Source of the DNA: a virus
Lineage: Duplodnaviria > Heunggongvirae > Uroviricota > Caudoviricetes
Virus record (IMG/VR): IMGVR_UViG_2703718837_000007
Length of the DNA stretch: 14,864 nucleotides
Direction: 5' to 3' (one strand)
Positions 12,028 through 14,864 of this stretch are shown here, piece after piece. Below the pieces are notes generated by a model. The model did not search any database. It saw only the letters and a program-made list of their open reading frames with translations, and was not told the origin of the DNA. The stretch's first letter is position 1. The number at the start of each line of letters is the position of its first letter. Made by a program: the position numbers and the translations under genes.

Positions 12028-12064
12028 TAAAAAAGAGAGGGAAATATCCCTCTCTTGCATTAAA
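12028..12064. terminator. Hairpin terminator between convergent tailspike and gtrC
   Basis: Stem 12033..12041 (AAGAGAGGG) pairs with 12048..12056 (CCCTCTCTT), loop AAATAT. On the minus strand it is followed by a U-rich tract (UUUUAUUAAUAA), so it is stronger for the gtr transcript; the plus-strand T tract is weak. Confidence 0.6.
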
Positions 12065-13585
12065 TTACTTTATATCTGTTTCAATTGGTTTGTTGTACAC
12101 CAAGAATGTTGTGTTCTTATATGATAGGATTTCATCGGCTTTTCCTAATTGCTTCTGAGCACCATCAATACATATTTGAACGTTTGGACATGTATCACCA
12201 CCGGTTTGTCCCTGAGTTATGGCAATAAACTGTCTGTTTGGTTTACCGCTTATGAATTCCTTTGTATGCCATGAAGACAGTGTTTGTATTCTTGCAGGCT
12301 GAAAATACACAACACCAGTTTCAGGGTTAAAGAAAACAGGTGTTATATGTATTTGGTCTTTTGATAACCAATTCACTGTCATATTCATAGAATACCAAAA
12401 ACTACCATAACCATAACTTAGATTATTGTTGGAAAGGAAAGTCATATATTCATAAACTGGGTTTTTATTTTCTTCATATTTTAATGGTGAGTTACAATAC
12501 CCATAAACAGAAACACAAATAGTTATGAAAATTGGTATTAAGAAAGCTTTATAAAATCTTATGGCTACAGAGGTTAACAAGAAAACAACGGGAGCAACAT
12601 TTACATAAAAACGTTGATGCGGAAATTGATCTCCAATTATAGATGAAGAGTAAATTCCAAGAACTGAAAGGACGCAGCAAATAGAAAAGATACGTAATTC
12701 TTTACCTCTATTAAAACAAACTAAAGCAGCTGCTATGAACACGGCCACCCATATGAAAACAATAAAATATGACATAGATGCTGATGGGTTTACCCACAAT
12801 GGCATCATTTTTGCTGTTAATACTATTGCATACTGTGCATTAGATATCATCTGCTCAAATGTTGTTATTTTGAACCCGCCAGTCGGTAGATCAAAAAGGT
12901 GTTGAACTAGATTCAAATAAGATGTTAAAAATGCAAGCAATAGAAAAATAAAGTATTTGTAACTTTTTCTATTGATGAATGAATTGTAAACCTCAGATAT
13001 CAATATAGGTAGTGTAAAAGATGGTAATATCCAAGGATCAGAAGCTCCAGAAAGTACTAATAGTATAAAAATGGAAGCGGCAGGAATTATTTTCTTGCTT
13101 GAGAGGGTTATTATGTATATTGCTAATACAACAAATCCGAATGCATTTGTTGAATTATGAGAAAAAGGATGCGAATAATAATTGCTATATAGATCTGGAG
13201 ATATTAGTGTTATTGATATTAATGCTGCAAAAGCAGCAGTTTTACCAGATAAGATATCTGCGATCTTTGATGAACATAGGCAAATTGCAATTATGAAAAT
13301 CGCACTGGAAAGCATTAAAGGCACAAAGCCATTTTCATTAAAAATGAAAAATAAAAGAAAATTTATAGGGTATACGGTAAAATACCAGTTATCAAATGTT
13401 GGCTTCCAGTTATTGAAAGCATTAAACCCATGTGCCAAAAACTCTTTCCACATTATAGGGCTATTTGCTGAATCAGGATCTGTGATCCATGTATAGCTAA
13501 ATCTAGATGTAAGGAATATGCTTACCAAGCATGAAATTATGCATGTAAAATAAAATAATTTATTTATCGTTTCTTTTGAAAACAT
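12065..13585 (-). CDS. GtrC-type serotype-specific O-antigen glucosyltransferase (polytopic membrane protein), 506 aa
   Basis: Third gene of the gtr cassette with a TAATG overlap with gtrB; highly hydrophobic with multiple predicted TM segments; markedly AT-rich compared with gtrA and gtrB. Family assigned by position and topology, not by sequence identity. Confidence 0.7.
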   Translation of the reverse strand: MFSKETINKLFYFTCIISCLVSIFLTSRFSYTWITDPDSANSPIMWKEFLAHGFNAFNNWKPTFDNWYFTVYPINFLLFFIFNENGFVPLMLSSAIFIIAICLCSSKIADILSGKTAAFAALISITLISPDLYSNYYSHPFSHNSTNAFGFVVLAIYIITLSSKKIIPAASIFILLVLSGASDPWILPSFTLPILISEVYNSFINRKSYKYFIFLLLAFLTSYLNLVQHLFDLPTGGFKITTFEQMISNAQYAIVLTAKMMPLWVNPSASMSYFIVFIWVAVFIAAALVCFNRGKELRIFSICCVLSVLGIYSSSIIGDQFPHQRFYVNVAPVVFLLTSVAIRFYKAFLIPIFITICVSVYGYCNSPLKYEENKNPVYEYMTFLSNNNLSYGYGSFWYSMNMTVNWLSKDQIHITPVFFNPETGVVYFQPARIQTLSSWHTKEFISGKPNRQFIAITQGQTGGDTCPNVQICIDGAQKQLGKADEILSYKNTTFLVYNKPIETDIK

Positions 13586-14505
13586 TAGTTATTACCTTTT
13601 TTTATAATGTAACGAGGTCTTTTTTTGGACTCTAAATAAATCCTTCCTATATATTCCCCTAGCACTCCGATTCCAATAAGTTGAACCCCCCCAAGGAAGA
13701 GTATTGATACAAGTAGAGAAGGATAACCTGGAACATTGTTTCCGTAGATTAGTTTGTCAAGAATCATTAATGCCCCATAAATAAAAGCAACTCCTGCAAC
13801 TAATAGGCCAATGTATGTCCATACTCGCAAAGGGAATGTAGAAAAACTTGTAATCCCCTCGAGTGCAAGATTCCATAGTTTCCATCCATTAAACTTTGAG
13901 TTACCCGCTATACGTTCAGCGCGAGTGTATTCGACGACATCGGTTCTTCCACCAACCCAACTAAGTACCCCCTTCATAAAAAGATTTCTTTCTTGAAGCA
14001 ACTTGATGTTATCTACTACTTCACGGGACATCAGGCGAAAGTCACCAACATTTTCTTCTATCTTAGGAGTGCTGATTTTGTTGTGCAACTTATAAAACCA
14101 CTCGGCAGTCTTACGTTTTAATCGACCATCTGTTGAACGATCTGTACGCTTAGCAAGCACCATATCTGCACCGACCCGCCATTTCTTAATAAGATGAGGG
14201 ATAACCTCTATAGGATCCTGCAGGTCAACATCAATTGGAATTACAGCATCCCCGGTTGCATGGTCTAACCCTGCAAACAATGCTGGTTCCTTACCAAAGT
14301 TGCGCGTAAATGACAGCGGAACAACTAGAGGGTCTGAAACACCCAGAGCATTAATAATTGACTCCGTAGCATCTTTGCTGCCGTCATTTATGAAAACGAT
14401 TTCCACTTCATATGACTTCAATTCTTCGAATTCACGTACCGTTTTATAAAAAATTGGTATCGCTTCTTCTTCATTGAAGACAGGAACTACAAGAGATATC
14501 TTCAT
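13585..14505 (-). CDS. gtrB: Bactoprenol glucosyltransferase GtrB (GT2 family), 306 aa
   Basis: [26 protein letters not shown]...INDGSKD...[14 protein letters not shown] matches recalled GtrB of P22 and Shigella serotype-converting phages; two C-terminal TM helices; ATGA overlap with gtrA. Confidence 0.92.
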
Positions 14506-14864
14506 TTCGCATCCCTAAAGACAATGAACTTTGAATAGACGAAACCGCACACCAGGCTGAGGGCGGAGAAGGTGATAAGAGTGATAATTGGAGGAAGCGA
14601 GCACTTATCAGCAGCCCATCCAACAGTAGCACTCAGTGTTCCCATGAACCCGACATATAACATGTAGCGCATCGTTGTAGTCGATGCTTTGAATGTGAAT
14701 TTTGCATTCGCGAAGAAGCTAAAGCTCACAGCCACAAAGAAACCTGCGAAGTTTGCCAGAGCCTGATTGGTATGCGCGGCATAGATACATACACCAAAAA
14801 CCACCCAGTGTATAAGTGTGTTCAGCACACCAATCGAGGTGTACTTTGCAAATAGCTTTAACAT
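14502..14864 (-). CDS. gtrA: Bactoprenol-linked glucose translocase (flippase) GtrA, 120 aa
   Basis: [42 protein letters not shown]...[11 protein letters not shown] is near-identical to recalled GtrA. The ATG is the last codon of the window (14864..14862), so the promoter lies outside. Confidence 0.92.

Follow-up and report, generated by a model that had tools for sequence, protein, structure and literature searches.

An intact gtrABC operon converging on the tailspike gene of a defective P22-like prophage of Escherichia coli

The 14,864-nucleotide viral sequence analysed here (the window) ends, on its minus strand, in three intact open reading frames in the order gtrA-gtrB-gtrC (12065-14864), which fill the interval initially annotated as an O-antigen glucosylation cassette. 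This region is very probably an intact gtrABC operon of the Shigella Sf type, carried by a defective P22-like (Lederbergvirus-type) E. coli prophage at the end adjoining att, read from its own promoter, which is predicted not to switch, and probably masking the receptor of the adjacent tailspike. The system and its logic are textbook, and the gtrABC described here is an uncharacterised example of it. The region comprises the following features:

gtrC, 12065-13585, minus strand: 506 aa, GtrI-family serotype-specific glycosyltransferase of predicted GT-C type
gtrB, 13585-14505, minus strand: 306 aa, GT2 undecaprenyl-phosphate glucosyltransferase with two C-terminal transmembrane segments
gtrA, 14502-14864, minus strand: 120 aa, small membrane protein, putative Und-P-glucose flippase
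tailspike gene, P22-type, 9904-12027, plus strand: 707 aa, context gene
hairpin terminator, 12031-12056, not assigned to one strand: serves both the convergent tailspike and gtr transcripts

Organisation and composition of the cassette

The gtrA start codon forms the exact right end of the window. The gtrA/gtrB junction is a 4-nt overlap (ATGA) and the gtrB/gtrC junction a 1-nt overlap (TAATG), and this tightly packed, co-oriented arrangement of gtrA-gtrB-gtrC(type) matches the operon model of Allison & Verma, including the variable, low-GC, polytopic third gene, present here as gtrC, and the prophage position adjoining att/int. Intact frames, gene order, overlaps and family matches together bear out the identification of a gtrABC cassette, and its proposed convergence on the tailspike was confirmed, the two being separated by a 37-bp spacer that contains the terminator. 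The hairpin has a 10-pair stem and a 4-nt loop, with a T-run on the minus strand and a preceding A-run on the plus strand, and the same 48 bp recur in 32 complete E. coli genomes, where they adjoin other glycosyltransferase genes. Two antisense plus-strand open reading frames within gtrC (13099-13296 and 13182-13496) were taken as spurious, and an Rfam scan of the entire window gave no match.

GtrA matches PF04138 (E 2e-13) and phrog_2224 (GtrA-like O-antigen conversion protein, E 1e-69), while GtrB matches PF00535 (E 2e-29), phrog_34335 (GtrB O-antigen conversion protein, E 4e-177) and the Synechocystis GtrB structure 5EKP (E 2e-88), with hydrophobic windows at residues 231-249 and 264-282. 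Protein identity is 91% (GtrA) and 89-90% (GtrB) to Shigella phages SfI and SfV, and 81% and 87% to the P22-like Salmonella phage SPN9CC; at the nucleotide level gtrAB is ~84% identical to the Shigella Sf phages and ~76% to the P22-like Salmonella phages. The description of gtrA and gtrB as near-identical to the P22/Shigella versions was thus overstated, the proteins being conserved at 81-91%. The accompanying idea of independent origins within the cassette fared better: in Escherichia sp. E1V33 the identities to the present genes are 99% for gtrC, 95% for gtrB and 82% for gtrA, and by this comparison the cassette is mosaic.

The GC content of gtrC is 32.2% (GC3 25.4%), with 40.2% in gtrB, 45.5% in gtrA, 42.7% in the tailspike gene and 51-52% in the neighbouring DNA-ejection genes. 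A 506-codon open reading frame at 32% GC has an arithmetically estimated chance probability of (1-0.076)^506, or ~1e-18, so gtrC is not a chance reading frame. The GC contents of SfI gtrI (33.4%) and SfV gtrV (33.3%) are similar; low GC is common to gtrC-type genes and is therefore nothing particular to the present one. The initial annotation was right to regard gtrC as the divergent, AT-rich, type-specific gene (32.2% GC, 39% identity to GtrI), but the AT-richness carries no special signal.

The GtrC family and its predicted fold

The only characterised relative of GtrC is GtrI of phage SfI, which adds glucose alpha-1,4 to GlcNAc (PMC3636060). The two proteins are equal in length (506 aa each) and 38.8% identical over 490 aligned residues (BLASTP, E 6e-106), while GtrV of SfV gave no match. 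The possibility had been raised that gtrC would match a known type-specific transferase at high identity and with similar GC; such a homologue with similar GC exists in GtrI, but at 39% identity, so that acceptor and linkage are not transferable to GtrC.

GtrC and distant members of its family had no match in Pfam, NCBIfam or PHROG, also with the threshold relaxed to E<=1, and against PDB sequences a profile search found a chance match alone (E 0.29). The GtrI family nevertheless has 764 cluster representatives at E<=1e-3 in the searched library, nearly all of those encountered being named 'hypothetical protein' at source because Pfam, NCBIfam and PHROG hold no model for it.

The first 365 residues of GtrC contain ~10 hydrophobic helices, and the remaining ~140 form a C-terminal alpha/beta domain. 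Its AlphaFold model, built from an alignment that left out the SfI sequence, reached a pLDDT of 91.2 and a pTM of 0.90. The top 26 Foldseek matches of this model were all GT-C enzymes (STT3/PglB/AglB, ArnT, ALG12/9, DPY19 and EmbB), with E-values down to 8e-6, a probability of 1.0 and query-normalised TM-scores <=0.56 (ArnT). GtrC is therefore predicted to adopt a GT-C fold, the structural matches being polyprenyl-phosphate-sugar transferases only. Invariant across 32 homologues are D38, T63-x-D65-N-W-Y-F-T, H139-P-F-S-H143 and S182-D-P-W; D38 and D65 lie directly after helix 1 in the predicted structure and are candidate acidic active-site residues in the putative first periplasmic loop.

The upstream region and the state of the prophage

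The promoter lies outside the window and was read from near-identical contigs, chiefly L002 (99.98% identical). The 140 bp upstream of gtrA match the regulatory block of SfI/SfV and contain a single GATC, located at -58 relative to the ATG; this is also the only GATC within 300 bp, compared with four (-135, -122, -71 and -58) in SPN9CC. No OxyR half-site (ATAGnTnnnAnCTAT-like) was present upstream of gtrA at >=8/10 positions, whereas a P22-like control in the same scan gave four GATC and four sites at this threshold. In the alignment to the P22-like promoter, a segment of ~77 bp is missing here, and with it GATC1-3 and OxyR half-sites A and B.

It had been expected that a phase-variable gtr promoter, under Dam/OxyR control as in P22, would lie just past the right edge of the window. 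Some features agree with this: the sole GATC and GATC4 of the P22-like promoter are equally far from the ATG, an extended -10-like element (TGnTAGACT) aligns with the P22 -10 region, and an imperfect palindrome (CAAGTATCGATCGATTGAGACTTG) spans the -58 GATC, which makes some form of regulation possible. The proposed extended -10, TGATAGACT (L002 8682-8690), was placed solely by positional alignment to the mapped P22 promoter, and a sigma-70 consensus scan upstream of gtrA found no gtr-oriented promoter. The signature of Dam/OxyR phase variation, however, is four GATC in two pairs together with three OxyR half-sites (PMC2909390), against one GATC and no half-site here, and in the work of Broadbent et al. 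(PMC2909390) phase variation was absent from Salmonella gtr(LT2_II), whose promoter likewise contains a single GATC and lacks OxyR sites. With the ~77-bp block also missing, the expectation does not hold, and a P22-like switch at this locus is very unlikely. Since the Dam/OxyR switch is absent from the promoter, gtr expression is predicted to be uniform and not phase-variable.

Further upstream in L002, a lambda attP arm and core start ~120 bp from gtrA and are followed by ybhB/bioA; the lambda-type att junction lies ~350 bp past the window edge. The attP match is 97% identical, core included, and the junction is a lambda attP/attB hybrid. The anticipated att/tRNA junction to the right was therefore found as regards att, beside ybhB/bioA, but not as regards a tRNA. 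In contigs L003 and L010 the gtr cluster comes after intS and argW, and the cluster with the same tailspike occurs in at least three chromosomal insertion contexts.

The prophage is a defective deletion remnant: genes for immunity, replication, lysis and the head are missing, and of gp10 the last 75 residues alone remain, fused after ninE. Exclusion of 'its own' phage is consequently not a current phage benefit, and the notion that the lysogen modifies the O-antigen recognised by its own phage type is moot at this locus. Such gene loss could also mean that the cassette, stranded in a dead prophage, is silent or in decay and now modifies nothing. A deleted version, in which the 3' half of gtrC is fused to the first 59 bp of gtrA, is indeed carried by phage N7 as well as by E. 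coli FDN-24 and FDN-9, and megablast against 5426 complete RefSeq E. coli genomes found intact gtrC in none, yielding the deleted remnant and the 48-bp terminator only; for this reason the genomic context of gtrC was taken from draft assemblies. Decay is nonetheless improbable, as all three frames are uninterrupted despite an AT-rich, stop-prone composition, the family-invariant residues of GtrC are complete, one identical GtrC protein is encoded on 110 contigs, most of them from E. coli, neither the promoter block nor the terminator has been lost, and the cluster is maintained across its several insertion contexts. Assemblies with this exact GtrC include GCA_047730665.1, GCA_021486795.1, GCA_050546085.1 and GCA_026406185.1.

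Tailspike linkage, proposed function and related systems

The tailspike consists of a head-binding anchor (residues 1-112) followed by a beta-helix receptor-binding domain (residues 113-707), the arrangement of P22-like (Lederbergvirus) tailspikes, and matches PF09008 (E 4e-67) and PF13229; solved homologues cover its N-terminus only (PDB matches to the P22 and Sf6 N-termini). Its true start is at 9904, the listed start at 9856 being 16 codons too early, because the genes called in related contigs encode 707 aa. A tailspike 97.5% identical at the protein level is present in E. coli O26:H11 prophages, and from its distribution the receptor-binding domain is likely of O26 type.

All examined GtrC orthologues (52-99% identity) that are still beside phage tail genes converge on a tailspike, and the two proteins co-diverge: GtrC identities of 99, 88 and 70% correspond to receptor-binding-domain identities of 88, 79 and 51%, with none detectable at GtrC identities <=66%. 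This series includes a locus whose tailspike anchor differs (PF18668), and the receptor-binding domain and gtrC stay paired across anchor type and host genus (C. sedlakii). Beside gtrC of four E. fergusonii loci (L035-L038, GtrC 61%) no tailspike homologue could be detected, and these loci did not inform the linkage comparison. In phage N7 the gtrC remnant is 98% identical but the adjoining receptor-binding domain merely 59%, so the linkage is breakable. The suggestion of matched tailspike and gtrC specificities thus gained comparative support from co-divergence across loci, but is qualified by the O26 prophages, in which the same receptor-binding domain (97.5%) is accompanied by an acyltransferase in place of gtr.

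Two readings of this linkage were weighed. Physical adjacency by itself could yield the co-divergence, and it is possible, if doubtful, that the linkage reflects a shared 'moron slot' between tailspike and att with co-transfer of neighbouring DNA and no functional receptor match. The cargo of the slot does vary (gtrABC here, the acyltransferase in the O26 prophages, both in L039), breakpoints occur at the tailspike 3' end and within the cassette, and N7 departs from the correlation. On the other side, the pairing persists through a change of anchor, hence of phage type, and of host genus; in N7 the exchange of the receptor-binding domain is accompanied by an inactivated cassette; and the alternative cargoes are both O-antigen modifiers, genes treated in published work as receptor-modifying superinfection barriers (PMC10408124). 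On this evidence, the receptor-binding domain of the adjacent tailspike probably recognises the very O-antigen that the cassette would modify. A broader reading, offered tentatively, is that the receptor-binding domain and gtrC are co-adapted parts of a single 'recognise-and-mask' supermodule. This supermodule would travel whole between phage types, from P22-like phages to PF18668-anchored, Uetakevirus-like ones or the reverse, and between the host genera Escherichia and Citrobacter. In E. coli it may survive in a domesticated, defective prophage because it yields an O26-type or related O-antigen in an unrecognised, glucosylated form, with the branch perhaps on GlcNAc as with GtrI and with constitutive expression.

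The most likely role of the operon is to attach a glucose side-branch to the O-antigen of its E. coli host. Following the established Gtr pathway, GtrB would transfer glucose from UDP-glucose onto undecaprenyl phosphate at the cytoplasmic face, GtrA would carry the Und-P-glucose over to the periplasmic leaflet, and GtrC, with its predicted GT-C fold, would attach the glucose to one particular sugar within the O-antigen repeat through acidic residues of its first periplasmic loop (candidates D38 and D65). Transcription would run from the operon's own promoter just outside the window, whose core matches that of P22 gtr in position and which lacks the Dam/OxyR switch, to the hairpin shared with the tailspike gene. 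The cassette would alter serotype and prevent adsorption of phages bearing the receptor-binding domain of the adjacent tailspike, because the O-antigen modified is probably the one that this domain recognises. The identities of the genes, the predicted fold, the conservation, the promoter layout and the genomic settings are direct results of the analysis; which sugar is added, to which acceptor, that expression is constitutive and that phages are excluded are inferred. A different target for GtrC (ECA, capsule or protein), or a sugar other than glucose, has little probability: the acceptor is not deducible from the GtrC sequence, the GtrI family has no curated model and some of its members lack adjacent gtrAB, but GtrB is 87-90% identical to that of characterised glucosylating phages, GtrI itself glucosylates O-antigen and gtrC regularly lies beside O-antigen-specific tailspikes.

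If active, the cassette would create an E. coli O-antigen subtype invisible to sequence-based serotyping (wzx/wzy), and antibody recognition, susceptibility to O-antigen-specific phages and tailspike-based diagnostics could change, which would be relevant if the backbone is that of O26, a major STEC serogroup. The loci also provide a small natural data set in which a receptor-binding domain is co-inherited with a gene that would mask its receptor.

Among known systems, gtrA-gtrB-gtrI of Shigella flexneri phage SfI (serotype 1 conversion) resembles the cassette in gene order and convergence on tail genes, in GtrA (91%) and GtrB (89%), in the length and GC content of its third gene (506 aa; 33% in gtrI, 32% in gtrC) and in a nearly identical 140-bp regulatory block with a single GATC at -58. 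At 39% identity between GtrI and GtrC, acceptor and linkage need not be equal, and SfI is a myovirus integrating at thrW with attP adjoining gtrA, whereas the gtr genes described here lie in the remnant of a P22-like podovirus whose att, at ybhB/bioA, is of lambda type. The gtrABC of Salmonella P22 and P22-like phages (O1 factor, Dam/OxyR phase variation) shares the phage type, the slot between tailspike gene 9 and att, and the position of the core promoter, with GtrA 81% and GtrB 87% identical, but its switch, composed of four GATC plus three OxyR half-sites, is missing here. P22 GtrC has no detectable similarity to the present GtrC, and tblastn of the phage collection found SfI and N7 only. 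The GT-C lipid-phosphate-sugar transferases (ArnT, PglB/STT3, ALG and EmbB) are like GtrC in predicted fold, polyprenyl-phosphate donor and periplasmic active site; those of solved structure are 9-14% identical to it in sequence and differ in acceptor. The P22-like prophages of E. coli O26:H11 (Sf6 oac-like) carry the 97.5% identical tailspike, receptor-binding domain included, followed by an O-antigen modifier gene before int/att, but this modifier is a co-directional acyltransferase in contrast to the convergent gtrCBA described here, and those prophages are integrated at argW with IntS.

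Organisation and composition of the gtr cassette

The region at 12028-14864 contains three intact, tightly packed minus-strand genes, confirming the gtrABC cassette of the initial annotation. Its convergence on the tailspike is equally clear, as the stop codons of tailspike and gtrC face each other over a 37-bp spacer.

14502-14864, minus, gtrA, intact ORF of 120 aa with its ATG at the exact window end
13585-14505, minus, gtrB, intact ORF of 306 aa
12065-13585, minus, gtrC, intact ORF of 506 aa
12031-12056, hairpin (10-bp stem) and T-run inside the tailspike/gtrC spacer

The overlaps of the gtrA stop with the gtrB start (ATGA) and of the gtrB stop with the gtrC start (TAATG) suggest a single translationally coupled operon. 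GtrA matches PF04138 in Pfam and the GtrA-like family in PHROGs (E 1e-69), and GtrB matches PF00535, the PHROGs GtrB O-antigen conversion protein (E 4e-177) and the solved Synechocystis GtrB 5EKP (2e-88). In 32 complete E. coli genomes, of which many are O26, the 48 bp carrying the terminator hairpin (12028-12075) recur at a second locus, with 98% identity and next to genes labelled 'glycosyltransferase', and may be a common recombination joint for gtr-type cassettes.

The AT-richness ascribed to gtrC is real (GC 32.2%, GC3 25.4%; gtrB 40.2%, gtrA 45.5%, tailspike 42.7%, DNA-ejection genes 51-52%), but it is generic in type-specific gtr genes rather than special to this one, because gtrI of the Shigella flexneri phage SfI has 33.4% and gtrV of SfV 33.3%. 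Likewise, gtrAB are conserved, but their description as near-identical to the P22 and Shigella versions was overstated: nucleotide identity is ~84% to Shigella phages SfI, SfII and SfV and ~76% to P22-like Salmonella phages, with protein identities to SfI/SfV and P22-like SPN9CC of 91% and 81% for GtrA and 89-90% and 87% for GtrB. The cassette of Escherichia sp. E1V33 shares 99.2% identity in gtrC, 95% in gtrB and only 82% in gtrA, and by sequence comparison the cassette is internally mosaic. It is a genuine and apparently functional gtrABC of the Shigella Sf lineage.

GtrC as a GtrI-family enzyme

GtrC has no match in Pfam, NCBIfam or PHROGs, relaxed thresholds included, and no sequence relative among solved structures. 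Its sole full-length relative in the phage collection is GtrI of SfI, also 506 aa (BLASTP check: 38.8% identity over 490 aligned residues, E 6e-106), which attaches glucose in alpha-1,4 linkage to GlcNAc in the O unit of S. flexneri (PMC3636060). Out of 1.84 billion representatives, a profile search recovered 764 at E<=1e-3, with 168 of these reaching E<=1e-30. Homologues are spread over Enterobacterales, with identities of 88% in Citrobacter sedlakii, 61% in E. fergusonii, 45-55% in Pseudocitrobacter, Yersinia, Hafnia and Obesumbacterium, and 32-36% in Pantoea, Erwinia, Rahnella and Phytobacter. Contigs with the exact protein number 110, of which almost all are E. coli, and it is always named 'hypothetical protein'.

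The best Foldseek PDB matches of an AlphaFold2 model (alignment of 32 homologues; pLDDT 91.2, pTM 0.90) are without exception GT-C enzymes using polyprenyl-phosphate-linked sugars, including STT3/PglB/AglB, ArnT (query-normalised TM-score 0.55-0.56), ALG12/ALG9, DPY19, EmbB and AftA. Hydropathy and the model agree on ~10 membrane helices in residues 1-365, followed by a C-terminal alpha/beta domain. Family-invariant residues include D38, T63-x-D65-N-W-Y-F-T, H139-P-F-S-H143 and S182-D-P-W, of which D38 and D65 are positioned directly after helix 1, presumably where GT-C enzymes carry their catalytic acidic residues. Judged by homology and predicted fold, GtrC is an uncharacterised GtrI-family GT-C enzyme. 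Following the established Gtr pathway, GtrB would make Und-P-glucose, GtrA would flip it to the periplasmic leaflet and GtrC would move the glucose onto the O unit in the periplasm; by analogy, a reasonable guess for the acceptor is the GlcNAc of an O26-type backbone.

The att junction and gtr regulatory region beyond the window

The region past the right edge was read from contig L002, which is 99.98% identical to window 2065-14864 and therefore shows what comes after the window end. The ~140 bp upstream of gtrA correspond to the regulatory block of SfI and SfV; beyond them lie a stretch matching the lambda attP arm at 97% identity, the 15-bp lambda core GCTTTTTTATACTAA (L002 8363-8377), ybhB and the bio operon, placing the att junction ~350 bp past the edge. 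This junction is thus of lambda type, with no tRNA. Other strains have this pairing of cassette and tailspike beside intS and argW (L003, L010) or near dacD (L004). Citrobacter and E. fergusonii loci (L032/L033, L035-L037) carry a divergent gene for a 129-aa Peptidase_S24 (LexA/CI-like) protein directly upstream of gtrA, between int and gtrA, which is absent from window-type loci.

Broadbent et al. describe the P22-type switch as two pairs of GATC (four in all) that overlap three OxyR half-sites; in their study, a gtr promoter from Salmonella that has a single GATC and lacks an OxyR site showed no phase variation (PMC2909390). With half-site-like matches counted at >=8/10 positions, the control SPN9CC has GATC at -135, -122, -71 and -58 from the ATG and four OxyR matches, whereas the region upstream of the window cassette, in the near-identical contig, has GATC at -58 only (GATC4 by position) and no OxyR match; ~77 bp with the remainder of the P22 switch are missing in the alignment. 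The phase-variable promoter anticipated beyond the edge is therefore absent, and gtr expression is predicted to be non-phase-variable, since the region has one GATC and no OxyR half-site, like the Salmonella promoter that did not phase-vary. A consensus promoter scan upstream of gtrA found no gtr-oriented site; from its alignment with the P22 -10 region, we infer that the element TGATAGACT (L002 8682-8690) is a promoter candidate. An imperfect palindrome around the GATC possibly leaves room for other regulation.

The regulatory block, outside the window, contains two imperfect palindromes, at L002 8598-8630 (AAAGCCTTGCA..TGCAAAGCTTT) and 8656-8679 (CAAGTATCGATCGATTGAGACTTG). [quoted passage not shown]

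The prophage remnant and a possible tailspike-gtrC module

The window prophage is a defective deletion remnant, with the following features.

2785-3192, minus, truncated Rv2179c-like exonuclease, first 46 profile positions missing
3078-3458, ninE
3445-3696, gp10 C-terminal fragment directly after ninE, last 75 residues (395-469 of a 469-residue profile)
9856, start of the listed tailspike ORF; P22-like N-terminus MSDITANV from 9904 (707-aa product in related contigs)

The gp10 remnant, upstream of the tail-needle gene, abuts the truncated exonuclease and opposite-strand genes of the early left operon, with no immunity, replication, lysis, terminase, portal or coat genes between the early-left and tail genes. 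Tailspike, ejection genes and gtr operon are intact, and the same arrangement in ~20 further contigs indicates that the remnant is stably inherited.

Between gp16 and the tailspike, the immI region is reduced to one Arc/Mnt-type repressor gene (9522-9815, minus), with no arc or ant gene, whereas phage N7 and E. coli FDN-24 have arc and an antirepressor. The gp16-type ejection protein (7039-9432, plus; 797 aa) has an N-terminal SLT lytic transglycosylase domain, while in L003 (602 aa) and L004 (665 aa) the corresponding protein carries no domain besides gp16, making the ejection-protein module mosaic among prophages with the same tailspike and gtr. Among the Ead/Ea22-like and DUF7739 early genes, an ORF at 187-858 (minus) encodes a dATP/dGTP pyrophosphohydrolase domain together with DUF551.

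The tailspike has a P22/Sf6 head-binding anchor (PF09008) and a beta-helix receptor-binding domain with no relative among solved structures. Of 5426 complete E. coli genomes, 105 carry this domain (~98.3% nucleotide identity), and the carriers with a serotype in their name are all O26 (11368, RM8426, RM10386). Behind it, O26:H11 11368 and FDN-24 have an acyltransferase, intS and argW, with no gtr; one receptor-binding domain is thus found with two kinds of O-antigen modifier.

The initial annotation proposed that tailspike and cassette have matched specificities. In the loci examined, all GtrC orthologues still beside phage tail genes are convergent on a tailspike; the E. fergusonii loci L035-L038 (GtrC 61%) are prophage remnants with no tailspike homologue detected.

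Identity of GtrC and of the adjacent receptor-binding domain to the window proteins (n=6 loci)
L010 (Escherichia sp. E1V33): GtrC 99.2%, domain 87.9%
L032 (C. sedlakii; anchor PF18668, not P22-type): GtrC 88.1%, domain 79.3%
L039: GtrC 69.6%, domain 50.8%
L040: GtrC 66%, domain none detectable
L042: GtrC 55%, domain none detectable
L044: GtrC 52%, domain none detectable

This co-divergence fits inheritance of receptor-binding domain and gtrC as one module across phage types and host genera, but the pattern would equally result from simple co-transfer of neighbouring DNA. The one exception is found in N7 and FDN-24, in which a 98%-identical gtrC remnant, deleted from mid-gtrC to the gtrA start, adjoins a tailspike with a receptor-binding domain only 59% identical. 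L039 also carries an Acyl_transf_3 gene (5729-6790) between gtrC and tailspike, forming a double O-antigen-modification module; its product shares just 24% identity with the acyltransferase of the O26 prophage.

Matched specificity is already a known concept, to which the present comparison lends moderate support. In a previous survey, receptor-binding proteins of Lederberg- and Uetakevirus prophages followed the host O serogroup, O26 included, and O-antigen modification genes often lay behind them as a superinfection barrier (PMC10408124).
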